Source of the DNA: a virus
DNA length: 64,000 nt
Virus record (IMG/VR): IMGVR_UViG_3300037851_000057
Coordinates: 1 to 64,000 of that record
Direction: 5' to 3' (one strand)
Below the pieces are notes generated by a model. That model ran no database searches. It had not been told where the DNA came from and saw only the letters and a program-made list of their open reading frames with translations. Each line of letters starts with the position of its first letter. The stretch's first letter is position 1. The translations under genes were made by a program, and so were the position numbers. Below are positions 2,302 to 60,546 of the stretch, piece by piece.

Positions 2302-3996
2302 CTACAGGGTCAGGTTGAGCCGGAACTTGCCGCCACCCGCAGGGGTCATGCTCTTAGCCACCGGCTGTTCTTGTTCTTGCCCGCCGTACTGCGTGAGTAG
2401 TTGCTGGAAGTCCACGGGCTCGGCTTCCCCTTCGGCACCGGGTTGACCACCCATCTGGCTACCCGGGGCCATGCCCGGCATCCCACCCTGAGCCGCTTGG
2501 TCCTTGGCCGATGCGAATTGGAGCCACGTCGGGTCCAGGATGCACTCGCCCTTCCCATCGGGAAGCGGCGGGAGGTCATCCTCGGCCCGTAGCTCGTCAA
2601 TGGTCCGCACCGTCTTGACCAGCTTGGTGTTGAGGTCGGCCGTCTCCTCACGGGTGCGGGCGTCCATGCCCATGAACTTGAACTCGAAGTTCTCGTTGAT
2701 GGGCCAGATCACCCACTGGTTGATGCACGCCTCAGCGAAGCGCAAGAGCGGGCGCAAGCCGCGCTCCTTGGACTCGACGATCTTCTCCTTGTTGTTGGCC
2801 TCAGTCATTCCAGACTTCTGGCCCGTGTTGCCGTACTTGAAGTTGATCTCCACCGGGTCGATGGTGAACATGGCACACGCGATCTTGATCAAGAAGTCGA
2901 ACCAGGCGTTGTACTCCATATCCCGGTTGCTGTTCTGCATCGCCACCCACTGGAGATCCTCAGCGTTGGTGATGGGTGTGCGCCAAGCGTTCTCGACTCC
3001 AGAGATCATCTGATACCAGTGCCGCCGAAACGCCTTGAGCTGTCGTTCTGGGATGGCGCCCTTGAAGTTGAGCACGCCTTTCTGGGAGCTGCCCTGGGAG
3101 AACGCCTTTTGGTTGTAGTCCCACCCGAACAGGATGGCCGTGATGACCACCATGAGCATTTCCAGCTCGCTCACGCCGTAGCCGAACAGGCGGATGTCCG
3201 TGCGAGGGTTCCGCACGCCGAAGCACAACTCCTCCTGGTTGTACTCCGAGATGATCATGCCGTCGTAAATCTGGACGTAGCGGACGGCCGTTTTCTCGTC
3301 CTCGTTCAAGTAGGTGCTCGCCGTGTCCGCCAACCGGAACGTGCTCGCGTCCACCGCGTAGAACTCGGTCGGCCGGCCCATCCGGTCGGGGACCACCTCC
3401 ATGCACGCTTGGTCGTACACGAGCGAGTCCCACATGAACTTCCGAAGGAACTTCTCGAAGCTGTCCCGGCCGCGGGGGTTATCGGTGATGCCTGTCCTGA
3501 GCATCATCGTCTCGGCTTGCTTGATCCACTTGGCCTCGGCCGGAGTCGGCTCGTGAGTCGCCTCACGGGTGCGGATCTTGAAGCCCAAGTCGTAGCGGTC
3601 CCGGCTCACCTGAGAGAAGGCCGCCATTTGCTGGATGCGGGTCTGGATGATGGCCTGGAGGATGGGGGTCCGCCACGCCATCGCCTTGAGGGTGCCGTAG
3701 GTGACCGCGCTCGGCCGTTCCTTGTACCCGAGCTGTTCGATGATGGCGAACGGGTCCCAGAACAGGGTCTTGGGGTCCTGGTCCGTGGGCTCGTCCGGCA
3801 TGGGCTCGCCCTCAGCGGTGTCCATCTGGTCACCGCCCGGGGCAGTCTCTTGCGAGTCCTCGCCTTCGGGGTCCGGCGTTGCCGGCTCGGCCTTCATGAG
3901 GGGAAGCGCATCTTCCCCCGAAAGGTCGCCCAGCGCCTCAGCCGTCGCTCCAGCCAAGCCGCGGCCGATATGTCGTAGTCGTTCTTGCCAGCTCAC
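2302..3996 (-). CDS. portal protein
   Basis: 564-aa ORF in the packaging/head module. Portal-like core (..GYGVSELEML.., ..WFDFLIKIACAMFTIDPVEINF..) with an acidic low-complexity C-terminus. GTG start at 3996 with GGAAGGGGA upstream. Confidence 0.8.
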   Translation of the reverse strand: MSWQERLRHIGRGLAGATAEALGDLSGEDALPLMKAEPATPDPEGEDSQETAPGGDQMDTAEGEPMPDEPTDQDPKTLFWDPFAIIEQLGYKERPSAVTYGTLKAMAWRTPILQAIIQTRIQQMAAFSQVSRDRYDLGFKIRTREATHEPTPAEAKWIKQAETMMLRTGITDNPRGRDSFEKFLRKFMWDSLVYDQACMEVVPDRMGRPTEFYAVDASTFRLADTASTYLNEDEKTAVRYVQIYDGMIISEYNQEELCFGVRNPRTDIRLFGYGVSELEMLMVVITAILFGWDYNQKAFSQGSSQKGVLNFKGAIPERQLKAFRRHWYQMISGVENAWRTPITNAEDLQWVAMQNSNRDMEYNAWFDFLIKIACAMFTIDPVEINFKYGNTGQKSGMTEANNKEKIVESKERGLRPLLRFAEACINQWVIWPINENFEFKFMGMDARTREETADLNTKLVKTVRTIDELRAEDDLPPLPDGKGECILDPTWLQFASAKDQAAQGGMPGMAPGSQMGGQPGAEGEAEPVDFQQLLTQYGGQEQEQPVAKSMTPAGGGKFRLNLTL

Positions 3997-7706: not shown

Positions 7707-9500
7707 CTACCAGAAACTTCGGAGCATGTCTGGGGATGGAGCGCCAGTCAGTCCATCCTCTACACCATCATCGTCATCGTCGTCCACAAGGTTCCCGCTG
7801 GCGCCCTCGGTATCGTCCCCGATGCCCAACGCGGTCTTGATGGACGCCTCGATCTCACGCTCGTCACGCTCAGGCTTGGGTTGGTCCTTCTTGTCCTCCT
7901 CAGCGTTCTCCCGCTCCAGCATCTTGTCCAGGTCCTCGGTTTCCACGTCATCGCCGAAGTCGAATGAGAAGCCACCTTGCTTGACGGCTTGATCGCAAAT
8001 CCAGCAAGCCATCGCCGTGTCGTCATGGGTGCCCACGCTCTTGATCTGCCCGTCCACCCAGGTGAGCGCCCGCATTTCCTCGATCCAGGTGTTGGTCATC
8101 TCCACGCTTCGCTTGTCGCCACGGGGGATGCGGAACTTGCCATTCTCCAGCAACACGCGGAGGGATGGCACGCCCTTGTCCAGTTGATGCTTGGCCGCCG
8201 TGGTCACGAACTTGCGGATGGGCAGGTCCGTGGTCCGAATCAGCTCGTCCCCGAAGATGCGTTGCATCTGGTTCGCTTCCAGGAACACGAGGGCGGGTTG
8301 GTACTTCCGGCCGGCATCATTGATCATGCTGAGCTGGCGTTGGTAGCTGAGCCCCTTGCCCCGCTGGATGTCCACGATCCAACGATTCCCGAACTTGTCC
8401 ACGCCCATGGTCCAGATCACCATGTAGTCGGCCTGGGCCGAGCTGGACATTGCGAAGTCCACCCCGATGTAGGTGGTGATTCCGGCCTTCTCCCAGAACG
8501 AGTAGGGCATCCCAAGCCGAATCGCCAGTTGCTCGGTGGGGTCGCCCTTGAACAGCGCCAGGGGGAACAAGCTCATGTCATCGGCCACCGGCTCGCACTG
8601 GAACTCGCGGGTGAACCGAATGGAGCCAATCTCCCGCCGCTTCTGTTGGAGCCGCTTCTTGCTGTAGCGGGCCTCCCAGAGGGGCCGTTCCTCGGGCCCC
8701 TGGAGGGCCTGGTATCGGCGGAACTCGTACTCGGTGTTCTCGGACAGGTCGGCGTAGAGGTCAGCTTGGTGGAAGGGGGTGCCCACCACGATGATCTGGC
8801 CGCCCGGCACGATCATGTTGGAGATGGCCGTGTAGAAATACTCGACCTGCTTCTTGCGGACCACCTCGGAGTAGGCCGTCTCATCGTTCAGGGCGTCATC
8901 CACCACGATCCAGTGGGGGTGGGCGCCGCGGACCTTGGTGCCGAAGCCGCGGGCGTAGATGCGATGCCCGTTGGCGAGCTGGATGGCCGTGCTCGACCAC
9001 TTGCGACCCTTGCCCACGCTCATGTCCGGCATGAGGTGTTGGAGCTTGGGGTTGTTCTCGATCTCGACCTTGATGTCCCCGAGGATGCGGATGGCCTGGT
9101 CTTGGGTCGCCGAGAAGATGTAGCCGATGCCGTTGCGGAGCCGCGCCGCCTGCCACAACGGGTAGGCGAAGTCGAAGAAGAAGGTCTTGCCGTGGTCGCG
9201 GGGAGCGAGGGCACAGATCCGCTTGTAGTTGCGGATCAGGTAGTCCCACTCCTCATGGTGGGGGCCGATCAGGAACTTGCCGTTGTAGGGGTGCTCAGGG
9301 GGCCCGGTCAGGATCTCCAAGGCGAAGGCGCCACAGCATTGCTCAAAGCTGGCCGTGAGAGTGTCCAGGCTCGCCGTGTGCCCGAGAGCGAGGGTCCGCC
9401 GCGTGATCTCTCGCATGACGGACTCTGGAAGGTTCAACTTCGCCGACTCCAAGACGGAGACGGCCTCGAAGGTAGTCTCAGGCTCACGTTCCATAAGCAT
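7707..9500 (-). CDS. terL: terminase large subunit
   Basis: Walker A-like LAPRDHGKTFF, Walker B HWIVVDDALNDE, VVGTPFHQADLY. C-terminal RNaseH-like nuclease (IGVDFAMSS..ADYMVIW, ..THDDTAMA). Start trimmed to ATG 9500 after GGGAGCGACCC. Confidence 0.9.
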   Translation of the reverse strand: MLMEREPETTFEAVSVLESAKLNLPESVMREITRRTLALGHTASLDTLTASFEQCCGAFALEILTGPPEHPYNGKFLIGPHHEEWDYLIRNYKRICALAPRDHGKTFFFDFAYPLWQAARLRNGIGYIFSATQDQAIRILGDIKVEIENNPKLQHLMPDMSVGKGRKWSSTAIQLANGHRIYARGFGTKVRGAHPHWIVVDDALNDETAYSEVVRKKQVEYFYTAISNMIVPGGQIIVVGTPFHQADLYADLSENTEYEFRRYQALQGPEERPLWEARYSKKRLQQKRREIGSIRFTREFQCEPVADDMSLFPLALFKGDPTEQLAIRLGMPYSFWEKAGITTYIGVDFAMSSSAQADYMVIWTMGVDKFGNRWIVDIQRGKGLSYQRQLSMINDAGRKYQPALVFLEANQMQRIFGDELIRTTDLPIRKFVTTAAKHQLDKGVPSLRVLLENGKFRIPRGDKRSVEMTNTWIEEMRALTWVDGQIKSVGTHDDTAMACWICDQAVKQGGFSFDFGDDVETEDLDKMLERENAEEDKKDQPKPERDEREIEASIKTALGIGDDTEGASGNLVDDDDDDGVEDGLTGAPSPDMLRSFW

Positions 9501-9555
9501 GGGTCGCTCCCTGCCCCCGAATCTGCCGGGGCCCGAAGGGATTGTCCAGGCTTGG

Positions 9556-9684
9556 CTACGTGTACTCGGTGGAATCGGCTCCAGCCGTCCGGGGATCAGA
9601 GCGCTTGTACCCGTATCGACCCCCGGCACGCCAGGACGGCGGAGGGGTTTCTTGCTGGCCGCACCGGCACACCCGGGCGCCCAT
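9556..9684 (-). CDS. possible small ORF (42 aa, MGARVCRCGQQ..)
   Basis: GC3-rich frame filling the 198-nt gap between dNK and terL. First in-frame ATG after the dNK stop. No clear RBS. Confidence 0.25.
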   Translation of the reverse strand: MGARVCRCGQQETPPPSWRAGGRYGYKRSDPRTAGADSTEYT

Positions 9685-10791: not shown

Positions 10792-12213
10792 TCAGCGGTT
10801 GGGAACGATAGGGGGCATCGCGCCCGCGGGCTGGGGCGGGATGATGGGCACTGGAGCCGCGGGAACCGGCACGGTCACCACCACGGTCTGGTCCGGGCCC
10901 TTCGCGGAGTCCATGCCCATGACCATCGTAGAGCCGGGCTCTTTTTCCTTTGACGCGGGGATGCTCCCCAGCTCGGCGCCGTGCTGGCTCCACCCCTCCC
11001 GCGCCTTCCGGGAGAACAGCTCGCCCTTCACGCCCGGGCAATACTTCTGGACGATCTCGTAGAACACGTCCGGCTTCTGGGAGTGTTGCTCAGGCGCCGC
11101 CGTGAACAGCGTGCTGGGGCAGGGCTTCTCCAGGAACTTGGTCCCGCCCTCGCCCTTGGTGGCCAGGATGCAATGCTCGGTCTGCCCACGGAGCCAATCG
11201 CCCACGCCCATCTTGGTCTTGGCCCAGGTCAGAAGCCCACGGGCTTCCAGTCCCCACGCCTTGAGAACGTCCAGGGCCTCGCCGCTCAGGAGATGGGCGT
11301 TGGTCACCCACAGCCACACCACGGCGTCCTTCTCGATGGGGAGCTTGAGCGCCTTGATCTCATCCGTGGTCATCGTCGGGTAGGGCGTCCGGCCACGTTG
11401 GGTGGAGTCATCCTCCCGGGTCTTGTTGAAGGTCCACGGCGGGTCCACCACGAGCACTTGAACGATGCCCTTGGGTGGCGGGTTCGCCTTGATGGCCTTG
11501 AGCTGTTCCTCGAAGGTGAGCTTCCGCTCCGCGTCGCGCACATTCTTGGCGTCGCCCTTCTCGATGGCCTTCATGATCTTCTCTTGCTTGGTCGGCGTGT
11601 GCTTGGCCAAAGCCGCCGCCTCGTGGACGCGCATGGCGCCTTTGTCCACCGCCTTCTGGACCGCCTCGATGGCGCCCTTGCGGACCTTGTTGGCATACGC
11701 CACCAACCGGGTAGAGACGCCACCCACAGCGTTGGCCGCATCTTCGGCCGCCGTGTGAGCGGGGGTCCGAGGGCTTGACTGCAAATTTGCAGTCAAGCCT
11801 TCCTCTTTCGCTTTACCCTTGGCCTTGGTCTTGGTCGCCTCGCCCCCTGCTTTTCGGCCTTCCTCTGCCCGGAGCTTGGCCGCCTTCTCGTACAGATCGG
11901 TCAGCTTTGACGCGATCATGGCCAGTTGGCTCTCGTTCAAGTGGCGCCGCTTGACGTTCAAGCTCACCACCTCTCGCGCCAGCTCGTAATCGTCCTCGTG
12001 TTTCGAGCGGATGTAGCTGGGGTCAATGCCCAGCTCCTTGCACGCCTTGTAGCGATGCCGGCCGTCCACGATGCGACCGTCCTTGCTCAGTAGGATGGGG
12101 TTCTGGAGCCCGCGGAGCTTGATGTCCTGTTTCAGCTCGTGGAACTCCAGCTCCGTCATCTCGGGCATGAGGGACGCTACCGGGTGAATCTTCATGGGCT
12201 TGACCTTGCTCAT
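10792..12213 (-). CDS. ParB-like nuclease domain fused to MT-A70-type (DPPW) DNA N6-adenine methyltransferase
   Basis: N-terminus: NPILLSKDGRIVDGRHRYKA (ParB/Srx fold). C-terminus: VVDPPWTF, YPTMTTDEI, WLWVTNAHL, TWAKTKMGVGDWLRGQTEHCIL, HSQKPD. RBS is GAGGAGAGCGACGT before the ATG. Confidence 0.9.
   Translation of the reverse strand: MSKVKPMKIHPVASLMPEMTELEFHELKQDIKLRGLQNPILLSKDGRIVDGRHRYKACKELGIDPSYIRSKHEDDYELAREVVSLNVKRRHLNESQLAMIASKLTDLYEKAAKLRAEEGRKAGGEATKTKAKGKAKEEGLTANLQSSPRTPAHTAAEDAANAVGGVSTRLVAYANKVRKGAIEAVQKAVDKGAMRVHEAAALAKHTPTKQEKIMKAIEKGDAKNVRDAERKLTFEEQLKAIKANPPPKGIVQVLVVDPPWTFNKTREDDSTQRGRTPYPTMTTDEIKALKLPIEKDAVVWLWVTNAHLLSGEALDVLKAWGLEARGLLTWAKTKMGVGDWLRGQTEHCILATKGEGGTKFLEKPCPSTLFTAAPEQHSQKPDVFYEIVQKYCPGVKGELFSRKAREGWSQHGAELGSIPASKEKEPGSTMVMGMDSAKGPDQTVVVTVPVPAAPVPIIPPQPAGAMPPIVPNR
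11772..11799. repeat. 28-bp perfect palindrome GGCTTGACTGCAAATTTGCAGTCAAGCC, copy 1 (inside the ParB-methylase linker)
   Basis: Read directly. A 34-nt stretch (11769-11802) is identical to 56295-56328. Confidence 0.95.
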
Positions 12214-16564: not shown

Positions 16565-16602
16565 CTTGATTCTGATTATACAGAATCAAGCGCCAATGTC
16601 AA
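16565..16602 (-). promoter_or_regulatory. promoter/operator module P1: TTGACA-16 nt-TATAAT with 10-bp inverted arms flanking the -10 box
   Basis: Minus strand: TTGACAttggcgCTTGATTCTGTATAATCAGAATCAAGgagg. -35 = 16597-16602. -10 = 16575-16580. Arms 16565-74 and 16581-90 match 10/10. Confidence 0.7.
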
Positions 16603-16603
16603 G

Positions 16604-16888
16604 TCAACCTTCGGCCCGCGTGTCCTTCCACATGGAAGGGCCGGTCACGTACACCTGGAAGTTGGCCACGATGCTGGAAAGGTACGCCGAGTAGTTCTCG
16701 GTGTGCGTCCACACGCCCCCGCTCACGTCCATCCGCGCCATCGGCCGCGCCAAGTGAACCAGGGGCTCGTGACCTTCCACGGCCTCGATGCGGGTGATGA
16801 TACTGGAGCCGAAGGCGCCCTCGAACGATTGCACTACGTCACCAACGGCCACTTCGCTTGCGTCTTGGTACTTGCGGGTTTCTTGCAT
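16604..16888 (-). CDS. hypothetical protein (94 aa)
   Basis: ATG 16888 after AAGGAGAGCGACC. The only gene between promoter copies P2 and P1. Confidence 0.6.
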   Translation of the reverse strand: MQETRKYQDASEVAVGDVVQSFEGAFGSSIITRIEAVEGHEPLVHLARPMARMDVSGGVWTHTENYSAYLSSIVANFQVYVTGPSMWKDTRAEG

Positions 16889-16897
16889 GGTCGCTCT

Positions 16898-16936
16898 CCT
16901 TGATTGTCATTATACACAATCAAGGGAGCGTGTCAA
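16898..16936 (-). promoter_or_regulatory. promoter/operator module P2
   Basis: Minus strand: TTGACAcgctcCCTTGATTGTGTATAATGACAATCAAGGagagcgaccATG. -35 = 16931-36. -10 = 16909-14. A-tract (UP-like) just upstream of -35. Confidence 0.7.
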
Positions 16937-16973
16937 CACGATTCCAGTCTTTTTTTCTGGGGACGATCCAGGG

Positions 16974-29205: not shown

Positions 29206-29243
29206 CTTGATTGTCATTATACAGAATCAAGGGGGCATGTCAA
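29206..29243 (-). promoter_or_regulatory. promoter/operator module P3
   Basis: Minus strand: TTGACAtgccccCTTGATTCTGTATAATGACAATCAAGc. -35 = 29238-43. -10 = 29216-21. Arms match 8/10. Confidence 0.65.
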
Positions 29244-29302
29244 GCGCCTAATCGGCGCCCTGTTCCCGAACGGAGAAGCGCTCCAGGTCCATGTTGCGTC
29301 GG

Positions 29303-33493: not shown

Positions 33494-33531
33494 CTTGATT
33501 GTGATTATACACAATCAAGGAAGCACGTCAA
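33494..33531 (-). promoter_or_regulatory. promoter/operator module P4
   Basis: Minus strand: TTGACGtgcttcCTTGATTGTGTATAATCACAATCAAGag. -35 = 33526-31. -10 = 33504-09. Arms match 10/10. T9 tract just upstream. Confidence 0.65.
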
Positions 33532-33532
33532 C

Positions 33533-33557
33533 AAAAAAAAAGCTGGAGTCAGTCCAG
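33533..33557 (-). terminator. possible intrinsic terminator (5-bp stem CTGGA/TCCAG followed by C then T9)
   Basis: Lies 15 nt after the stop of 33572..33793 on the minus strand. The stem is weak. Confidence 0.35.
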
Positions 33558-43578: not shown

Positions 43579-43776
43579 CTACTCTCCGTGCAACGCCTGT
43601 TTCAGTAGGTGGAGCCGCGGGTCGTATTGGGTCGTCGCCCTCGACGCCCCTGGAGTCGCCAAGAGGCACGACTCCAGGAGCCACGAGTAGCGAGCCGCAC
43701 AGTCCTTGCACCACAGATCCTCGGGACTCCACTTACCGAAGCACAGGTGCCGACCGTCCGGCCGGGCCGGGCCTAG
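43579..43776 (-). CDS. start-less GC3-rich ORF (65 codons, ..WSPEDLWCKDCAARYSWLLESC..) filling the SSB-like/recA gap
   Basis: My own translation. Its TAG abuts the recA ATG (gagTAGATG). It has no in-frame ATG or GTG. It lies in the -1 frame of the upstream gene. Confidence 0.3.
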   Translation of the reverse strand, partial: LGPARPDGRHLCFGKWSPEDLWCKDCAARYSWLLESCLLATPGASRATTQYDPRLHLLKQALHGE

Positions 43777-45212
43777 AAAGGCGTCCCGTGCCCTTGACCC
43801 GGGTTCATAGGGTATGCCGGCGCACCCCCGGGAGCCGGTTGCGATGACACCATGGGTGGGGTCGGCATCGGCGGGGGTTGGTTGGGCATGGCTGGCATCA
43901 GTGGACCCTGATAGCCCGCGCCCGGTTGCGTTGACACCGGAGGCGGAGCCGGGGGCATCGCCTGGCCACCCCAGCTCTGGGGTGGGAGGCTTGGCGCCGG
44001 GTTGGGCGGAACCGGGGGCATCCCGGGGCCACCCTGGTACGGAGCCGGGCCCCCTTGGTACGGAGCGGGCCCTTGGGGGAACCCGGGAGCCGGAGCCGGA
44101 CCACCCTGATAGGGCGCCGGACCCTGGGGGAATCCCGGAGCCGGAGCGGGCGCCGTCTGCATCGGGTTGGGCCAGGGAGCGCCCGGGTTGGGCTGATAGC
44201 CGCCACCCGGATAGGCACCACCCGGATAGCCACCCGGAACCTGCCCGAAGCTCGGGCCCGTCGCCGGCATCGGAAGGCCCAGCTCACGGATGGCCGCGAT
44301 CACCTCGTCTTGGGTGGGGAGCTTGTTGACACTCTCCAGGTCCCAGAGAGTCTGGAGCAACGGCCAGAGCTGTTGGGTGAAGGGAGCCGGGTCCATGTCC
44401 AGCATCCCCCACTCCACGTTGCGTTCCTCGTTGCCCGTTTTCTTCTTGGACAAGATCAGGTCACGCCCTTGCTCGACGTGGACCAGCTTGGAGATGCCGC
44501 CGCGAGCGTTGGCCAGCCGCGCAATGTCCGCCTGGAGCTGGGGACCAGCCGCCAGAACAAACGGCTTCATGATGCCGTCCTGGCCGTAGTGCGTCTGAGG
44601 GTTGCCCACGTCGGCCACGTTGTAGAGAAACTGGCGCCGCACCCGCCCGAATTGCTGAGCGATGGTCTGGAGCCGTTGGTCCGGGTTCTGGAGCGCCAAG
44701 TGGAGGGCGTGCTGGAACAGCGAGTCCTCGCCCATGTAGACGAGCACCTTGCCCTTGGGGTTTTGCGGCGAGCGGTAGAAGTAGGACTTCACCTCATGCC
44801 ACACCGGCTTCCCGGCCGCCCACGGGGGCAGGATGCGGATGCGGAGCCGGCCCTCGTAGCCGATATGCACGCTCGCATCCCACTTCACCTGTCCGGCCGG
44901 CCCGGGGACTTTCAGGAAGTTGGGCAAAGTGCCCTTCCCCCCGCCACCTTGCGCCGATGCCGCCATGGCCGCCGCCGCCGCGGCATCGTCAACCGCGTGC
45001 GTCTGGGGCATGGTCCCCATGTGTTGGGGCTGAAACCCTTGGGCTTGGGGGTGAGCCGGATACCCCGGTTGCTGGGGGTAACCCGGTTGCGGAGCCCCGC
45101 CTTGCGGCGGATACCCCGGCTGTTGTGGGTAGCCCGGCTGCGGGTAACCCGGTTGCTGAGGGTAGCCCGGCTGCGGATACCCCGGTTGCTGGAATCCTTG
45201 GTATGAACTCAT
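43773..45212 (-). CDS. putative ssDNA-binding protein (gp32-like core) flanked by P/Q/G/Y-rich low-complexity tails
   Basis: ATG 45212 after AGGAGAGTGAC. N-terminal (QPGYP)n. Core ..GRLRIRILPPW... C-terminal PAPYQGG repeats. Sits between the recA-like and UvsY-like genes. The function is inferred. Confidence 0.55.
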   Translation of the reverse strand: MSSYQGFQQPGYPQPGYPQQPGYPQPGYPQQPGYPPQGGAPQPGYPQQPGYPAHPQAQGFQPQHMGTMPQTHAVDDAAAAAAMAASAQGGGGKGTLPNFLKVPGPAGQVKWDASVHIGYEGRLRIRILPPWAAGKPVWHEVKSYFYRSPQNPKGKVLVYMGEDSLFQHALHLALQNPDQRLQTIAQQFGRVRRQFLYNVADVGNPQTHYGQDGIMKPFVLAAGPQLQADIARLANARGGISKLVHVEQGRDLILSKKKTGNEERNVEWGMLDMDPAPFTQQLWPLLQTLWDLESVNKLPTQDEVIAAIRELGLPMPATGPSFGQVPGGYPGGAYPGGGYQPNPGAPWPNPMQTAPAPAPGFPQGPAPYQGGPAPAPGFPQGPAPYQGGPAPYQGGPGMPPVPPNPAPSLPPQSWGGQAMPPAPPPVSTQPGAGYQGPLMPAMPNQPPPMPTPPMVSSQPAPGGAPAYPMNPGQGHGTPF

Positions 45213-45280
45213 GTCACTCTCCTTTGGGTGGGGCATCCACCCCTGCATGTATTGATGCTCAAACCTCGCTTACGGGAACA

Positions 45281-47855: not shown

Positions 47856-48028
47856 TACCAGCGCACCTTCACAGCTTCCCGAGCCATTGCCACTTGCTTG
47901 GCCGCCTCCTGGGCGGGCCACCCATCGGCCACGAGCTTCTTGAAGCGCTCGATGCCCGCGTAGGTGACAATCAAGGCCCCGTCCACCATGGCCGGGTCCT
48001 GTTGCACTCGAATCCAACCGCCCAACAC
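47855..48028 (-). CDS. possible small protein (~57 aa, ..DGALIVTYAGIERFKKLVADGWPAQEAAKQ..)
   Basis: Coding-looking C-terminal part of junk-headed track ORF 47855..48565. The start is uncertain (GTG 48028, TTG 48025 or ATG 47989). TAATG junction with polA. Confidence 0.3.
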   Translation of the reverse strand: MLGGWIRVQQDPAMVDGALIVTYAGIERFKKLVADGWPAQEAAKQVAMAREAVKVRW

Positions 48029-48075
48029 CTCACTCCAGAAATAGCCGTTCTGGAACGAGCCGCATCGGAGGGCGT

Positions 48076-53551: not shown

Positions 53552-53788
53552 CTAGTCTTTCGTCATCGGTTCAATTCCAGAGATAGCGTGCTTGTAGATC
53601 ATCTGCGTGGTGTCCGTGCCGTCCACTTGGACGCCCACAGAGTACACGTCCACCCAGACAAGTCTCCCCACTACAGGCACCCATCCATCGTCATTCGGAT
53701 GCGTGAGCCACACGCGGATGGTCTTGCCCTTGTTGGCCTGGAACCATTCGCTCTCGGGGCTCTGTCGCGGCTTCTTGCCGTTCCCCAT
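53552..53788 (-). CDS. Hfq/Sm-like protein (78 aa)
   Basis: IRVWLTH..VVGRLVWVDVYSVGVQV..TQMIYKHAISGIEP. The Sm2 box YKHAIS matches bacterial Hfq (QMVYKHAISTVVP). ATG 53788 after GGAGAA. Confidence 0.6.
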   Translation of the reverse strand: MGNGKKPRQSPESEWFQANKGKTIRVWLTHPNDDGWVPVVGRLVWVDVYSVGVQVDGTDTTQMIYKHAISGIEPMTKD

Positions 53789-53808
53789 CACCTGTTCTCC
53801 GTTGTCAG

Positions 53809-54306
53809 TCACAGGGGGTTGTTCTCCAGCTTCCAGTTGGGGTCCAGCTCGCTCGCTTGGGTTATCAGGAACCGGATGGCCCGATCCAGCTCCTCGATGG
53901 TCAACGTCTCCGGGAAGCCCACGTCCATCATCTTGCCCTCGGCCGCCGCCTTGGGGTCCGGGTGCGGGACTTGGTGATGCTTGATGCCGGCCCGATGATC
54001 CCGGTAGCCCGCCACGAGGTTCTGGAAGTCGCGGATGCGTTCCTCCCAGATCACTGAGTCCATGGAGTCCACGAGATGGGTCGCGTTGAACACGAGCCAC
54101 GCTCGGCCACTGGCCGCCAGCCACTCCTTGAGCTTGTCCGGGCCCTGCATCCAGGTCCGCATCTGAGCCTCTGAGCGCTCGATGTCGCTCATGGCTTTCA
54201 CGTCCGGGGTTTCGATCAGCTTCGGTTCCGTCACGCCGCTCTCCTCATTCACGAAAAAATGCCCCGGCCGACCAAGGGACAGGTCAACCGGGGCCTTCGG
54301 TTTCAC
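53809..54306 (-). CDS. hypothetical protein (165 aa)
   Basis: Track ORF with a GTG start and no clear RBS. Alternative ATG 54192. Confidence 0.45.
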   Translation of the reverse strand: MKPKAPVDLSLGRPGHFFVNEESGVTEPKLIETPDVKAMSDIERSEAQMRTWMQGPDKLKEWLAASGRAWLVFNATHLVDSMDSVIWEERIRDFQNLVAGYRDHRAGIKHHQVPHPDPKAAAEGKMMDVGFPETLTIEELDRAIRFLITQASELDPNWKLENNPL

Positions 54307-54377: not shown

Positions 54378-55964
54378 CTATTGATGCCCGGGGGCTCCTC
54401 CCGGTAACACCGCTCCCTCGAAAAAGTTGACGGTGGGGGGCATTCCCGCCTGGAGCCAGCCGGACAACAGCGAGAAGTCGTAGAGCACGCTCACCTCGAA
54501 CGTCGGCTCCGCGTGGTAAGTCAGCATCCGCTGTTCACTGTGCGCCATGAGCCGCTTGTGGTGGCGATCCGCGAAGTCCACGATCAACGCCGTCGTCTTG
54601 CCCGGCACCGCCGTGCAGACCCGGTAGGCGTTCTGAGTCATGGACACCTCGGCCTTCTCCCCGCGGGCGTACACGAGCGCGTCCACGCTCGGGAGGTCCA
54701 CGCCCTCGCCCAAGAGGGAGGTCCCCATGAGCACCTTCACCTCCTGGTCCGCCAAGAACGAGTCGATGATCCGCGTCTGGATGTCCCGGGGCCGGTCGGT
54801 GCTCAAGAACTCCACAGCATCGAACTCGGCGCCAGCCGGGGGCTTGGGTAGGAACTGACCCAGGATGTGGTCCAGCTCCCGCCCTTGCGCCTTGGTGCCC
54901 ACGAGAACCAGGACCTTCATGCCTCGCTGGTACAGCAACAGGGCCGCCTGGGCGACCATGTGGTTGCGGACCTTGTGCTCATGGATGCCGGCCTGGCCGA
55001 AGCCTCCCGAGAACTGGTTGCCGGCGCCGCGGAGCTTGGGGTGTCTGGGGACGGGAACAAACACCACCTTGGTGGGGACCAGGAAGCCCCGCCGCAACAG
55101 CTCCTCCGAGCTGACCTTGAAGATCGTGTTGCTCAGGAGCGCGTGCATCGCCATCGCATCGTGGCCGCTCCGAAAGAACGTCCCGGTCATCCCGTAGCGG
55201 TAGTAGATGTGGTCGCACTTGGGGATGATCTCGTTGGTGTAGGTCTTGGCCGCCGTGTGATGCCACTCGTCCACCACCAACATCTCCCGGCCCGCGTAGA
55301 ACTCCGGGGCCAGGTTCCCCGCCGTCGCCGACGTGCAGACCACAACCTTGTGGCGAGCCGCCCGTTCCAGCTTGTCCGCGCTCGTGCCCACGAGATGGTA
55401 GACGTAGTTGCGGCCGAAGTGGTCCTCGATGACCCGGGCCGTTTGCTGGACAATGCGGTCGGTGGGAGCAATCCAGATCGTGGGGAGCCCGAGCCTCCGG
55501 TGAAGCTCCAGCATCGTGCGGGTCTTGCCCGACCTGGGGGGCATGTCGAAAACGCCCCTCCCGAGCCGAAGCCCGGCCTCCACGGCCGCCTCCTGGTAGT
55601 CCCTCAGCTCGACCTTGGGGAACTCGGGCATCTCCTCCGCGGGGCGTCGCCGGGTGTCCAAGACGTGGGGCTGGTAGTTGAACTTGGTGCAGACCCGGGT
55701 GACCATGGGCAGTAGCCCGGTCGGGAAGTAGGGATACATGGTCTTGGGTCGCCTGAGCAACCGAATCCACCCGTCCCAGCCCTTCTCCTCGCCTGGGGGT
55801 GGCCTCCAGAAGGGTTGGCCCGTTGCCGGGTTGATGGCCATGGCGAGGGCCTGGGGGGTAGGGTAGGACGCCTCGTACTCCAGCACCCGAAGGATGAACT
55901 CGTCCGCCTGGAGGATGCTCGTCCAAGTGTTGCCTACCTCGAAGTGCACCTCAGCTCCCGCCAT
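54378..55964 (-). CDS. SF2 DEAD/DExH-box DNA helicase
   Basis: Motif I MPPRSGKTRT, motif II LVVDEWHH, motif III-like MTGTFF, motif VI-like QNAYRVCT. 528 aa. Confidence 0.85.
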   Translation of the reverse strand: MAGAEVHFEVGNTWTSILQADEFILRVLEYEASYPTPQALAMAINPATGQPFWRPPPGEEKGWDGWIRLLRRPKTMYPYFPTGLLPMVTRVCTKFNYQPHVLDTRRRPAEEMPEFPKVELRDYQEAAVEAGLRLGRGVFDMPPRSGKTRTMLELHRRLGLPTIWIAPTDRIVQQTARVIEDHFGRNYVYHLVGTSADKLERAARHKVVVCTSATAGNLAPEFYAGREMLVVDEWHHTAAKTYTNEIIPKCDHIYYRYGMTGTFFRSGHDAMAMHALLSNTIFKVSSEELLRRGFLVPTKVVFVPVPRHPKLRGAGNQFSGGFGQAGIHEHKVRNHMVAQAALLLYQRGMKVLVLVGTKAQGRELDHILGQFLPKPPAGAEFDAVEFLSTDRPRDIQTRIIDSFLADQEVKVLMGTSLLGEGVDLPSVDALVYARGEKAEVSMTQNAYRVCTAVPGKTTALIVDFADRHHKRLMAHSEQRMLTYHAEPTFEVSVLYDFSLLSGWLQAGMPPTVNFFEGAVLPGGAPGHQ

Positions 55965-56048
55965 GTTCTTCTCCAGTCACCTATGGTGGCCGTGGGCCAC
56001 CCCTTTGAGGCGAAGCCTCAAAGCTGCGAATTTTTCGTCTCTTTAGTA

Positions 56049-56088
56049 GATCCAGATCCAAGATCAACGATCCGATCCTGCCTGGATC
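56049..56088. repeat. cluster of six GATC sites in 40 bp (four as GATCC)
   Basis: taGATCCaGATCCaaGATCaacGATCCGATCCtgcctgGATCt, read directly. Confidence 0.95.
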
Positions 56089-56096
56089 TTCCAACG

Positions 56097-56151
56097 CACC
56101 CCGCCCCTTGACTACCTGGAAGGTAGCCTCCAACGGGGCAGGGGCGGGGTG
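56097..56151. other. nested stem-loop: 11-bp perfect GC-rich stem CACCCCGCCCC/GGGGCGGGGTG enclosing CTACC-TGGAA-GGTAG
   Basis: Read directly. Confidence 0.8.
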
Positions 56152-56297
56152 AAAAGTAGGGAAGCGAATTGATTTCGTTGAGTTTTTTGCTGTTTGATGT
56201 GCCTGGTTTGTCGTTGTGCTGAGGATGTTCAATCCTGATAGTGATGATGCCGGGTCGGGTCGTTTGGTAACACGTCCCGTGCATTTTTCTCGGGGAG

Positions 56298-56325
56298 GGC
56301 TTGACTGCAAATTTGCAGTCAAGCC
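56298..56325. repeat. 28-bp perfect palindrome GGCTTGACTGCAAATTTGCAGTCAAGCC, copy 2 (7 nt downstream of the 56333 stop codon)
   Basis: Read directly. Identical to 11772-11799. Confidence 0.95.
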
Positions 56326-56332
56326 TTCGAGG

Positions 56333-56791
56333 TCACTTCAAAGCCTGGACCGTCTTGACGCTCACCGCGAGCACGGCCACCGTCACCACCGCGGTCACGG
56401 CCGCGACGAACGCCGGCCGCTCGTACCAGCGGGGCGCGAGGGTGTCCTCCATCTCAGCCATCCGCCTCATGAGCAAGTCCTTCTGGAGCTGGAATGCCGC
56501 TTGGTCGGAGGCGCGGAGGGCCTTCTCCGCGTTCAGGTCGATGGTCCCTAGCTCCCGCGTTTCCCCCACCGCCAGGTCCACGCGGTCCTGGCATCCTCCC
56601 GCGAGCACGGCCAGCTTGGCCGCTCGCCGGCCGGTCATGAGCTGACCGGAGAAGGGGGCGGGCTCTCCCTCCATGAGGGGCTGGACACAGCTCTTGGGGT
56701 CGTCGGGGTCGCAGGACTTCGGGAGGGCTTGAGCGAGCGCCGTGCTACCGAGAAAGCCGCTCAAGGTAGCGAGCAAGAGCCACCGGGTCAT
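56333..56791 (-). CDS. envelope protein with N-terminal signal peptide, coiled-coil centre and C-terminal TM helix (152 aa); spanin-like
   Basis: MTRWLLLATLSGFLGSTALAQA signal. C-terminal FVAAVTAVVTVAVLAVSV. Overlaps the upstream gene by 47 nt. Confidence 0.5.
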   Translation of the reverse strand: MTRWLLLATLSGFLGSTALAQALPKSCDPDDPKSCVQPLMEGEPAPFSGQLMTGRRAAKLAVLAGGCQDRVDLAVGETRELGTIDLNAEKALRASDQAAFQLQKDLLMRRMAEMEDTLAPRWYERPAFVAAVTAVVTVAVLAVSVKTVQALK

Positions 56792-58203: not shown

Positions 58204-60546
58204 TTAGGCGTTGGGCGCCTCGAAAATCTCAACCGTGAAACTGATAAGTTGAACCACGTCTCCATTCCCGTTATCCCAAATCTGGGCGTAGAAGGTGATG
58301 TTCTGGTCAGTCTTATTGAAGCCCCAATCCCAACCGGCCGCGTTGTAGACCTGGCAGTCGTACACGCCCGCGTAGCCCCCGGGGTCCACCATTGCGCGAG
58401 CCCACTGATTGCAAGTCGCCAAGAACCCCGTGTCCTCACGGTAGACGATCTCATCCACCTCGATGGTGGCGTTGATGTACCACCACCGTTGCCGGGTTTG
58501 CGTATTGAAAAGCTGGGCGTTCCATGAAGGACCCTTCGCCCCCACATAGAATCGAATCTCACCCGTGGGTGCGCCGCCCCCCGTATAGGTTTTCACACGG
58601 AACCCGGCTCGAATCCGAACCACCGAACCCGCCTTCAACGTCCCTCCCGGGATGACCACTTGGTCCGGGAAGTTGGTATAGGTACTGGCCGAGGTAATTT
58701 CCTGGGGATCATCCGAGATGTTCGAGTAGAACCCGATGGGGATGCCCACCCACTTGGTCCCATTGTAGAGCTTCAACCGCTGACCATTATCCGAGTCCGA
58801 AAACACGTAACCCGAAGTCGCCGTTCCCGTGGATTGCGGAACCAAGTACAGCTCAGCCCCCCGCAAGTAGGTGCCCGCCTGGACATAGGTGCCCGCCTGG
58901 ACATAGGTGCCCGCCTGCATGAAGCCACCACAGGTGATGTCCGCCTCGGCGTAGATGTCATTGTCCGTGGGGGCTCCCGTGGCCGAGCCCACGTAGAGGC
59001 CGTTGGTCACGGCCAAACCTGCCGACGTGAGGCGCATTTCCTCCACAGCATTCAAGATGAATTGCCAGTTGGTTCCGTCCCAAAGCTGGTAGTCATCCGA
59101 GCCCCAATAGACCCGGCCGCCATCCGCGTAGAGGTAGGTCCCCGCATGAATGGCCCCATCCGTGCGGACTTCATTGTCCGTAGGAGCCGTTCCGGCATTG
59201 CCCACGTAGAGGCCGTTGGTGATGGCCAAGCCGCTCGCCGTGAGGCGCATCTCCTCCGTGGCATTCAGGAACCATTGCCAGTTGGTCCCATCCCAGGCCA
59301 CGTAGTCATCGGTGCCCGCGTAGACCCGGCCGCCGAGGGCTTTCACGTAGCCGTCCGCGATGATGTTGTTGTCCTCGATGGTGCCAAAGCTGCCCACGTA
59401 GAGGCCGTTGGCGACCGACAACCCCGACGCGGAAAGCCGCATCTCCTCCGTAGCATCCAGGAACCAAGACCAGTTGGTGGCGTCCCACGCCTCGTAGTCA
59501 TCGGTGCCCAGGTAGAGGCGCCCACCCGCCCGCATGTACCCTTCGGCGATGATCTCGTTGTCCGTGGGCGAGGTCGTGACGTTGCCCACGTAGAGGCCGT
59601 TCAACACATTCAGGCCGCTCGGCCCGACCCGCATCTCCTCGGTTCCAGCAATCTTGAATTGCCAGTAGTTGTTGGTCCGGTCATAAGCGAGGTCATCATT
59701 GCCACCCGTAGCCGCCCAACGGATGTAGGGGTCCCCCGCCTTGTCCAGGTAGAACTCGGCATCACCGATGGCCAGCCGGTCCTCCACCGGAGCGGCATCG
59801 AACCCGATGTTCATGCCCCCGATGTCCCGGGACCACCACCGCCTGAGCCCCCGACCCTTGATGTCCTCCAGGCTTTGCCGCATGGCCGCCGTGAAGGTCT
59901 GGAGGTCGGTCACGCCGTAGGTGCGTCGATCTGCGTTCCGGTCATTGGCCCCTCCACCGCCATCCGAACTCCAGCCACTTTGGTAGGTGGAGTCCACCGA
60001 ACCCTCGAAGTAGAACTTCCGCTGGTCCACAAGGACCAGGCTGACTCCCGTGTTGTCAGCCGTGCCAATCTGCATCCACTCGGCGCCGGGGCTTCCTGTC
60101 TCCACGCGGACGGACCAGTTGGCCTTACGCCGGGTAGCGATGGTCGATGCGAACTCAGAGCCCGACCCCGCGGGGTCCCAGAAGATGCGCGAGCTGTTGT
60201 CTCCGTCTACCAGCTCGAACCGAAGGTAGACGTTGTAGTTGGTGGGCGTGAGAGGGCCCATGTCGATGGTCTTGGTAAGGTCCCCATCGGCCGAGATGTA
60301 GCCGTGCTGGAGGGCGCCGTCGATACGAGCGGCGAGAAGGGCGCGACCCAAGCTCACCACGAGCTGTTTCCCGCTCGGGTTGGTCATGCCAAAGCCACTC
60401 AGAATCCACGAGCGCACCGCCCCCGTGGGGTTGGTCAGGAATTGCTCCCCTTGCTGGCGGATGGCCGCCTCCAGCGCTTGGCTGGTTGCATAGGAAAAGT
60501 CGCCGTAGTCAACGCGCTCGTTTGCTTCTACTCGAAGGGTGTCCAT
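58204..60546 (-). CDS. tail fibre protein with four ~65-aa internal repeats
   Basis: 780 aa downstream of the baseplate genes. Repeats DDY.AWD.TNW.WFL.ATEEMRL.ASGL...NGLYVG x4 and QAGTYV x3. Confidence 0.7.
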   Translation of the reverse strand: MDTLRVEANERVDYGDFSYATSQALEAAIRQQGEQFLTNPTGAVRSWILSGFGMTNPSGKQLVVSLGRALLAARIDGALQHGYISADGDLTKTIDMGPLTPTNYNVYLRFELVDGDNSSRIFWDPAGSGSEFASTIATRRKANWSVRVETGSPGAEWMQIGTADNTGVSLVLVDQRKFYFEGSVDSTYQSGWSSDGGGGANDRNADRRTYGVTDLQTFTAAMRQSLEDIKGRGLRRWWSRDIGGMNIGFDAAPVEDRLAIGDAEFYLDKAGDPYIRWAATGGNDDLAYDRTNNYWQFKIAGTEEMRVGPSGLNVLNGLYVGNVTTSPTDNEIIAEGYMRAGGRLYLGTDDYEAWDATNWSWFLDATEEMRLSASGLSVANGLYVGSFGTIEDNNIIADGYVKALGGRVYAGTDDYVAWDGTNWQWFLNATEEMRLTASGLAITNGLYVGNAGTAPTDNEVRTDGAIHAGTYLYADGGRVYWGSDDYQLWDGTNWQFILNAVEEMRLTSAGLAVTNGLYVGSATGAPTDNDIYAEADITCGGFMQAGTYVQAGTYVQAGTYLRGAELYLVPQSTGTATSGYVFSDSDNGQRLKLYNGTKWVGIPIGFYSNISDDPQEITSASTYTNFPDQVVIPGGTLKAGSVVRIRAGFRVKTYTGGGAPTGEIRFYVGAKGPSWNAQLFNTQTRQRWWYINATIEVDEIVYREDTGFLATCNQWARAMVDPGGYAGVYDCQVYNAAGWDWGFNKTDQNITFYAQIWDNGNGDVVQLISFTVEIFEAPNA
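58868..58921. repeat. 3 x 18-bp perfect or near-perfect tandem repeat (TAGGTGCCCGCCTGGACA) inside the fibre gene
   Basis: Read directly. Encodes QAGTYV-QAGTYV-QAGTYL. Confidence 0.9.
58957..59700. repeat. four diverged ~190-bp coding repeats in the tail-fibre gene
   Basis: Derived from the protein repeat positions (aa ~283-530). Confidence 0.7.

Follow-up and report, generated by a model that had tools for sequence, protein, structure and literature searches.

A conserved, putative control region with clustered GATC sites heads the replication genes of a large family of uncultivated phages

What is the function of a 368-bp gap that carries six GATC sites within 40 bp and lies directly in front of the replication genes of an uncultivated phage? 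The gap occupies positions 56332-55965 of the stretch of DNA analyzed here (the window), which comprises 64 kb of a 109,201-bp metagenomic phage contig (IMG/VR record IMGVR_UViG_3300037851_000057) and has a guanine-plus-cytosine (GC) content of 64%. An earlier note on this DNA had proposed an origin or a master promoter/regulatory region at this place. What stands of that proposal is that the gap is a selected cis-acting region heading the replication module, but the analogy with oriC and P1 oriR fails on the other testable defining features. Judging from the comparison with relatives, the gap is a real non-coding control region made up of several parts, which a large uncultivated phage family has in front of its replication genes, and it most likely contains the promoter of these genes and a structured mRNA leader. 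The reading that we favor, to which we give a probability of roughly one half, is that of a control region composed of a promoter and a leader, with a melting or methylation module built on GATC.

The helicase encoded next to the gap, whose N-terminus (MAGAEVHFEVGNTWT) aligns with its homologs, has hundreds of metagenomic homologs, several of them on 104-111-kb contigs. From JGI metagenomes 76 loci were taken with a helicase profile, and five closer relatives were obtained by exact protein look-up. About 26 loci, with helicases 48-82% identical and a genome GC from 0.41 to 0.64, have one ordered architecture upstream of the replication module, namely the stop codon of a small late gene, a terminator or palindrome, in many of them sigma-70-like boxes and a small hairpin, and an A+C-rich tract, followed by a GC hairpin, a ~50-bp low-GC module of short repeats, a box, one or two GC hairpins with CTTCG-type loops, a conserved ribosome-binding-site context and the gene that comes first. 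Whichever gene opens the module, the element precedes it, and in locus L010 it is found ~800 nt upstream of the helicase, with coding-like sequence between them. There is no relative among isolate phages, because a megablast of the region against GenBank phages gave no match and tblastn with PolA and the helicase gave nothing above ~29% identity; a search of IMG/VR with the helicase also gave zero matches. The relatives turn up in metagenome-assembled genomes of three unrelated phyla (Gemmatimonadaceae, Latescibacterota and Clostridiales), and the host is probably not enterobacterial.

All six elements that the earlier note had described in the gap were found at their places. The hairpin near the helicase is GGTGGCC/GGCCACC (55985-56001), with its end 20 nt before the ATG at 55964; the second hairpin has a stem of 9 bp at 56003-56023, rather than the 8 bp at 56004-56022 first reported; the nested GC stem-loop has a 12-nt perfect stem (56097-56108/56140-56151) that encloses an inner hairpin; and the palindrome, at 56295-56328, has 17-nt arms that are 94% complementary. 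Two open reading frames (ORFs) cross the gap, and both were ruled out as genes by their flat GC at the three codon positions (GC1/2/3 of 0.51/0.52/0.52, vs 0.63/0.43/0.90 in the helicase), so that the gap is considered non-coding. It is plausible that this is the largest gap of the window, as had been claimed, but the gene calls are crude, and nominally larger gaps contain an HNH gene or lower-GC ORFs. When compared with shuffled sequence, the whole gap folds with a z-score of about -6 on either strand.

The six GATC sites, four of them as GATCC, form the only such cluster in the window. At least six GATC within 40 bp were obtained in 2 of 20,000 random placements, and elsewhere in the window the maximum is two in 40 bp; the background had been estimated at one GATC per 300 bp, and the 256 sites counted correspond to one per 250 bp. 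The module that contains them has 50% GC, is imperfectly dyad-symmetric and folds with a dG of -21.5 (z of -3.4). In the clade of the window the number of GATC sites is six (window, L077 and L080) or five (L081), and their spacing is kept while the spacers drift. Within this clade 17 of 24 GATC columns are invariant, vs 7 of 29 other columns of the module (Fisher p about 9e-4), which argues for selection on the GATC tetranucleotide itself. Furthermore, the related loci (412 kb) contain 11 GATC clusters, and 8 of these fall in the intergenic region of the element; the others are in an intergenic gap upstream of the helicase module (L050), ~280-410 nt upstream of the helicase (L033) and inside the helicase gene (L039). 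Other lineages have other sequences at the position of the module: (TA)10 with two flanking GATC sites in L079, AT-rich short palindromes in L001, L074, L007, L017 and L035, and other short tandem repeats in L019, L045 and L016. The length of the module is ~50 bp in the closest members of the clade and 30-71 nt across all 26, and its GC is 0.08-0.50 in 25 of the 26 lineages (0.56 in L030), mostly well under the genome value. Dyad symmetry gives z-scores of -2 to -4 in the clade of the window, and values below -1.5 in only 11 of the 26 relatives. The GATC module is, as it appears from this comparison, a lineage-specific version of a length-conserved low-GC module, and what the family seems to share is a segment of low stability that is rich in repeats or dyad-symmetric. 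In L033 tandem arrays lie upstream of the helicase (3380-3720), with four ~33-nt units, (TCTTC)n, about nine GATCAGACTA 10-mers and ten GATCCA hexamers.

Clustered GATC sites are also a feature of the pac site of P1, which is regulated by Dam and contains clustered GATC hexamers. A packaging (pac or cos) site or genome terminus modelled on P1 pac would suit this likeness, and also the position of the gap at a module boundary in a genome with all its genes on one strand. However, the large terminase gene (7707..9629) is 46 kb away, an mRNA leader follows the element, and in the relatives the helicase is found ~8.5, 50, 58 and 70 kb into contigs of 105-111 kb. These distances to the contig ends are unrelated, which fits random breaks of circular or permuted genomes. 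By the terminase distance and the random positions of the contig ends, a pac site or terminus was rejected as a candidate, and a packaging role is very improbable; the probability that the other readings leave over falls to packaging or other functions.

The GC hairpin is conserved in another way. Its GCCCC unit is present twice, and the 5′ half of the G arm can pair with the first or the second copy; when pairing was scored per sequence, matched arm variants were found in the relatives for both copies (GCCCC/GGGGC, ACCCC/GGGGT, AGCCC/GGGCT, GGCCC/GGGCC and ACCGCC/GGCGGT). The fact that both copies track the G arm points to two isoenergetic registers of the hairpin. In the MAFFT alignment, the helix of the second copy with the G arm is 95% paired, with a covariation of 0.28 vs 0.10 in shuffles (0 of 500 shuffles as high), and the pairing of the inner hairpin is kept by covariation while its sequence varies. 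The covariation of the outer stem was blurred by register shifts in this alignment, and therefore per-sequence pairing was used instead: scored one at a time, most sequences have an outer stem of 8-12 bp (the automated picks for L012, L030, L031 and L035 landed outside the C1 arm). The wobbles in the hairpin are U-G on the coding strand, with zero A-C pairs, which favors pairing in minus-strand RNA or in a single strand. No Rfam family matched the hairpin at gathering thresholds, and only chance-level matches were obtained between 55900 and 56400 at E up to 5; scans for tRNAs and for Rfam families at gathering thresholds gave no matches in the whole window. A pattern search for the hairpin in IMG/VR gave 7 matches, all in unrelated high-GC coding sequence, and was discarded. 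The duplicated, covarying C-tract is thus without counterpart in Rfam, and the hairpin could be curated as a new cis-regulatory family.

Upstream of the GC hairpin lies the A+C-rich tract, the 'AT-rich stretch' of the earlier note. The stretch is indeed poor in GC (0.41 at 56153-56248, vs a window mean of 0.64 with a standard deviation of 0.053), but it is the second-lowest 96-nt stretch and not the lowest, which is the early-promoter region at 33.5 kb. Its composition on the plus strand is A17 C11 G30 T38, and the tract is predicted to be unpaired in the RNA fold. Its length in the relatives varies between ~10 nt and more than 100 nt, with several hundred nt in L079; L013 and L081 have an equivalent tract (e.g., caacaaaacagcaacaa), and among the relatives the A+C-only composition is kept while the sequence is not. 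The earlier note had proposed it as the unwinding element; the length-conserved element of low stability is the GATC module. In L079 the gap extends over 800 bp (1635-2434) and contains two to three ~100-nt units of small hairpins linked by ACAAC motifs. Two genes downstream of the helicase, the small Hfq-like ORF (53552-53812, minus strand) matches TIGR02383 with an E of 1.4e-6 and 28 bits, below the cut-off of 61.7, and its homolog in L077 has a weak match to PF17209; the A+C-rich (ARN-like) tract of the gap could be connected with such a phage protein of Hfq type.

These features could also be accounted for purely at the RNA level. The gap would then be a structured 5′ untranslated region of ~270 nt, transcribed from a weak promoter near 56240, or would encode a small RNA that ends at the GC hairpin. 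The A+C tract, being unstructured, would offer a platform to Rho, S1 or the Hfq-like protein of the phage; the GC hairpin, with its two registers of pairing, would act as a switch or be a site of processing; and the GAUC run would be no more than a second hairpin. The folding of both strands (z about -6), the hairpin that the GATC module forms in the clade of the window (z of -2 to -4), the covariation, which extends to the sequence-variable inner hairpin, and the restriction of G-U wobbles to the coding strand all agree with such an RNA, and so do the A+C-only composition that is kept without the sequence, the Hfq-like ORF and the sigma-70-like boxes that precede the tract in relatives. However, the GATC and (TA)n runs are palindromic features of duplex DNA, and only 11 of the 26 relatives show significant dyad symmetry in the module. 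Moreover, the window has at best a weak promoter upstream, and the GC hairpin is not followed by a U-tract and corresponds to no Rfam family. A function at the RNA level only is therefore improbable in our view.

Between the GATC module and the helicase, a purine-rich box and two small hairpins were found (Table 1). The box reads (Y)CTAAAGRGA followed by GAAAAA in the relatives, and is located 47-53 nt after the GC hairpin in six relatives in which the spacing was counted by hand. In the 64 kb it has a single match at up to 1 mismatch. The hairpins keep CTTCG-type loops in the relatives, where their stem sequences differ and pairing is preserved, and hairpins of the same type are present at other intergenic spots of the window; those beside the ATG are best read as RNA leader hairpins. 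Hairpins capped by UUCG are known between cistrons and in leaders of T4 mRNAs, and the likeness extends to the short GC stems with CUUCG-type loops, to their place just upstream of the ribosome-binding site and to their recurrence at other intergenic spots. They differ in that the canonical C(UUCG)G is mostly replaced here by C-G-closed UUC triloops, and the role of the hairpins here is a putative one. The ACTGGAG sequence upstream of the ATG of the helicase is also conserved.

The order of the genes bears on where transcription of the helicase may start. Essentially all genes of the window are on the minus strand, as judged by codon-position GC. On this strand, baseplate and tail-fibre genes run from 64000 to 56333, with the late gene 56333..56791 ending the tail/late block directly upstream of the gap. 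On the other side come the SF2/ResIII helicase (55964..54378), two unknown genes and the Hfq-like ORF, then DnaB, primase and PolA, and after them a UvsX-like recombinase, SbcCD and RuvC. A small-gene block (33 to 13 kb) follows, and then ThyX, kinases, a ParB_N plus MT-A70 methyltransferase, the large terminase and the portal. The module of helicase, DnaB, primase and PolA does start immediately downstream of the gap, as had been noted, but the supposed late/early boundary is actually one between late and replication (middle) genes: the consensus early promoters are found at 33.5, 29.2, 16.9 and 16.6 kb. The window has only four near-consensus sigma-70 promoters (33531, 29243, 16936 and 16602), all on the minus strand, and they serve the small-gene block and point away from the replication genes. 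Since the early promoters are elsewhere, the gene upstream is a late structural one and the replication genes are needed earlier, the promoter of the helicase operon should lie in the gap. Given that the gap has no sigma-70 consensus, this promoter is probably factor-dependent and of a middle type.

In the model that we propose, the gap would be the cis-regulatory head of the replication ('middle') operon. The 50-bp module together with the box CTAAAGAGA-cGAAAAA would be the region of recognition and melting, the transcript would start near the A-run, and the two UUCG-type hairpins would form a stabilizing 5′ leader, whereas the palindrome and the GC hairpin might stop transcription that comes in from the late genes or a weak promoter upstream, or insulate against it. 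This clade would build the module from a run of GATC. In sister lineages GATC is replaced by (TA)n or AT-rich palindromes, which suggests that the common property is a physical one, namely easy melting or dyad-symmetric extrusion. Methylation of the GATC adenines by the phage ParB-MT-A70 protein or by a host enzyme might lower the stability of the duplex locally, and could make the activity of the promoter depend on whether the DNA is parental or newly replicated. Something comparable is known from Dam-sensitive promoters (IS10 pIN, P1 cre, mom/OxyR and pap/agn43), which have one to three GATC sites in defined -10/-35 boxes or in regulator sites. As in these, the GATC sites of the gap are in a presumptive core or upstream promoter, and their methylation could gate transcription and tell parental from replicated DNA; unlike them, the gap has six GATC sites in tandem that are replaceable by (TA)n in sister phages, and neither Dam nor a reader (OxyR, Lrp or SeqA) was identified here.

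Several results weigh against this promoter and leader model. No sigma-70 hexamers (TTGACA-N16-18-TATAAT-like) were found between 55500 and 56900 (0 sites), and the gap has no recognizable -35/-10 boxes. The box is single-copy in the 64 kb, and hence is not a reusable promoter consensus; as candidates for such a consensus, both CTAAAGAGA and the inverted repeat TTCCAGAA/TTCTGGAA, which occurs once only, upstream of PolA, were rejected. Profile and fold searches with the ORFs of the window identified no activator, sigma factor, GATC-specific methyltransferase or reader. In addition, a pure promoter has no obvious need for a ~50-bp AT island clamped by an 11-bp GC stem, a layout that would also fit a DNA-unwinding element, and the model does not account for the GC hairpin being conserved in sequence and having its C-tract duplicated.

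A clamped AT island would also fit a replication origin, and two forms of origin have to be considered. In the first, in the style of T4 oriF/oriG or of the T7 primary origin, a transcript primed from the promoter would end or pause at the GC hairpin, and the 50-bp low-stability module would be the unwinding element onto which the DnaB-type helicase and the primase are loaded; in the second, in the style of oriC or P1 oriR, methylation of the GATC cluster would govern firing. The first form is compatible with promoter function, and an origin and the promoter reading are not mutually exclusive. In T4 oriF/oriG and in the T7 primary origin, a promoter is accompanied by an unwinding element of ~50-60 bp. 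At the level of sequence, the gap resembles them in its position at the start of DNA-metabolism genes, in the combination of a promoter-like region with a ~50-bp module that is AT-rich or of low stability, and in the T4-like genes of the phage for recombination and replication, with a UvsW-like helicase among them. The module, ~50 bp long (30-71 nt), is low in GC in nearly all relatives, and the promoter that would go with it is putative, with none at consensus in the window. The gap differs from T4 and T7 origins in that no MotA-type promoter or promoter for a phage RNA polymerase is recognizable and in that its module is GATC-based with 50% GC; nor does T4 or T7 have anything that corresponds to the conserved GC hairpin and the purine box.

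The general case for an origin is that the region is unique and conserved and heads the replication genes, that its ~50-bp module, AT-rich or (TA)10 in relatives, is clamped by a GC stem, that the short repeats are lineage-specific, with large arrays in L033 that include 18 GATC, and that the phage has a T4-like replication and recombination set (UvsW-like helicase, UvsX, SbcCD, DnaB, primase and PolA). GATC-dense origins are documented (PMC2865523; PMC11447400). The density found here, six in 40 bp vs one per 250 bp, is that of a Dam/SeqA-type origin, and P1 oriR holds 5 GATC in 55 bp, as GGATCT(A) units, where the gap has several GGATCT; P1 oriR and the 13-mer region of E. coli oriC also have an adjoining low-stability segment and replication genes close by. 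However, P1 oriR comes with an annotated DnaA site and, beside repA, with five 19-bp RepA iterons, and the gap is without these: it has no repeats of at least 17 bp (the longest direct repeat is 15 nt, in 2 copies) and no DnaA box, and in 13.3 kb of the regions of 26 relatives one box (TTATCCACA-like, up to 1 mismatch) was found vs ~2.8 expected. A BLAST search of the GATC cluster against phages gave chance matches only, with no similarity to P1, and, unlike in P1 or oriC, the neighbors of the cluster in the gap are a conserved GC hairpin and an mRNA leader.

The proteins of such an origin were looked for in essentially all ORFs of the window with Pfam, PHROGs and NCBIfam, and no D12-class Dam (MethyltransfD12), SeqA, MutH, sigma factor or initiator was found; specifically, no ORF of the window matched a Rep, DnaA or O-type initiator, or, as P1 and oriC would require, an initiator of the RepA/DnaA type. 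The only recognizable DNA adenine methyltransferase is the ParB_N plus MT-A70 fusion (10792..12213), to which no GATC specificity has been assigned. The unknown proteins of 220 and 141 aa between the helicase and DnaB gave confident AlphaFold models (pLDDT of 92 and 87), with no fold match in PDB or BFVD and no profile match in PDB. The likely host phyla are not known for Dam/SeqA either; to our knowledge neither has been described in Gemmatimonadaceae, Latescibacterota or Clostridiales. The GC skew, which had been proposed as a check of the origin, has no switch at 56 kb, neither as such nor per gene at third codon positions (GC3), a result that is weakly informative given the co-oriented genes and a probable recombination-dependent replication. 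With no DnaA boxes, iterons or initiator found, and no D12 Dam, SeqA or skew switch detected in the window, membership in the oriC/P1 class is not supported. Against an origin in general stand also the 50% GC of the module in the window and the mRNA leader that directly follows the element. Overall an origin is the less likely explanation and we put it forward tentatively, but a promoter-linked origin in the style of T4 or T7 may be regarded as a live rival, one that the clamped AT island fits well.

A further possibility, more doubtful than an origin of a known type, is that the gap represents a new phage module for the start or the control of replication, in which a GC clamp hairpin with a register-shifting C-tract would position a 50-bp unwinding element, and AT-rich sequence, (TA)n or adenine-methylated GATC would supply the instability. 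If so, methylation would replace AT-richness in GC-rich lineages, and the firing of an origin or a promoter would be tied to the methylation state of the phage DNA, outside the gamma-proteobacterial Dam/SeqA world.

Table 1. Features of the gap and of the start of the helicase gene
Feature	Position	Strand	Remarks
36-nt palindrome, core CTTGACTGCAAATTTGCAGTCAAG	56294..56329	minus	starts 4 nt after the stop of the late gene 56333..56791
Small hairpin AGGAT-tgaac-ATCCT	56222..56236	minus	preceded by a weak -10-like TATCAG
A+C-rich, G-poor tract (coding strand)	56152..56221	minus	GC 0.41-0.43; the 'AT-rich stretch' of the earlier note
GC hairpin CACCCC-GCCCC-t-GCCCC-(inner variable hairpin CTACCT/AGGTAG)-GGGGCGGGGTG	56097..56151	minus	carried by ~26 relatives
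50-bp repeat module with six GATC	56047..56096	.	sites at 56049, 56055, 56062, 56069, 56074 and 56085
Purine-rich box CTAAAGAGA-CGAAAAATT (CTAAAGAGA-cGAAAAA)	56029..56046	minus	conserved across relatives
Two GC hairpins	56003-56023 (UUC(G) loop) and 55985-56001	minus	RNA-type leader of the helicase mRNA (best reading)
Shine-Dalgarno GGAG (55971-55974) and ATG (55962-55964)	55962..55974	minus	SF2/ResIII helicase gene 54378..55964

The upstream parts of the gap are less uniform among the relatives. The palindrome may be a terminator-like hairpin without a U-tract, or an operator-like site. It is no canonical terminator: in a test for intrinsic terminators, the palindrome (56294-56329) and the GC hairpin both had stems, with no T-run after either on the minus strand, whereas several relatives do carry canonical terminators at its position. 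Its 14-nt core is found at the same position in L005 and L007, and the core CTGCAAATTTGCAG is identical in these two and in the window. A near-identical second copy of the palindrome (34 of 36 nt; GGCTTGACTGCAAATTTGCAGTCAAGCC) is located at 11768-11803 on the minus strand, within the ORF 10792..12213, where it is in frame, within the linker that joins the ParB_N domain of the methyltransferase to its MT-A70 domain. The presence of the exact 14-nt core twice in 64 kb is not chance, and it could be a parS-like or operator site. The aligned position of the small hairpin is conserved in L077, L080 and L081, and in relatives a sigma-70-like promoter, with -35/-10-like boxes read by eye, is found at this position.

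The four sigma-70 promoters of the small-gene block have a common structure. Each is a 40-nt element on the minus strand (33494-33533, 29206-29245, 16899-16938 and 16565-16604) with TTGACA/TTGACG-N16-TATAAT, in which a 26-bp operator palindrome (CTTGATTgTG-TATAAT-CAcAATCAAG) covers the -10 box and the leader GGAGAGCGAC-ATG comes next. The four are probably early promoters that can be repressed, and their half-site CTTGAyTG resembles the half-site of the gap palindrome.

Other observations concern the remainder of the window and the relatives. Across the early and recombination block (13000-43000) the GC skew is strongly negative (-0.13 to -0.23), the structural and replication genes have a skew near zero, and the per-gene GC3 skew flips sign between gene classes despite the single coding strand. 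An HNH endonuclease gene (PF13392; 12851-13327), probably a homing endonuclease, separates the kinase genes from the early block and is located in a patch of lower GC. Three tandem units of ~185-213 nt (60-75% identical) are present at 58937-59526, within a gene for a putative tail fibre of 780 aa (58204..60546), and tandem repeats of 15-18 nt (GGGTAACCCGGTTGCTG-like) at 45071-45191, within an unknown ORF of 491 aa (43773..45248), where they probably code for a repeated peptide. At 48018-48075, directly in front of the PolA gene, is the inverted repeat TTCCAGAA-cggcta-TTTCTGGA, unique in the window; the distant relative L038 has similar repeats (TTCCAGAAA/TTTCTGGAA) upstream of the helicase. 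Some homologs of the helicase (P0033, P0045, P0050, P0070, P0071, P0082, P0101, P0103, P0112 and P0116) are 635-856 aa long and carry intein or homing-endonuclease domains (PF14890, PF05203/4, PF14528 and PF07591), with the query aligned over about half.

If the promoter and leader reading is correct, the gap would provide a defined and testable cis-element for a widespread family of uncultivated phages of ~105-110 kb from sediments and lakes, and would mark the place at which the replication genes of these phages are turned on and, perhaps, replication begins. The apparent interchange of a GATC run and (TA)n at a fixed position would be a natural experiment on clustered adenine methylation outside enterobacteria, and it raises the question of whether clustered adenine methylation may serve as a helix-destabilizing or a state-sensing device.

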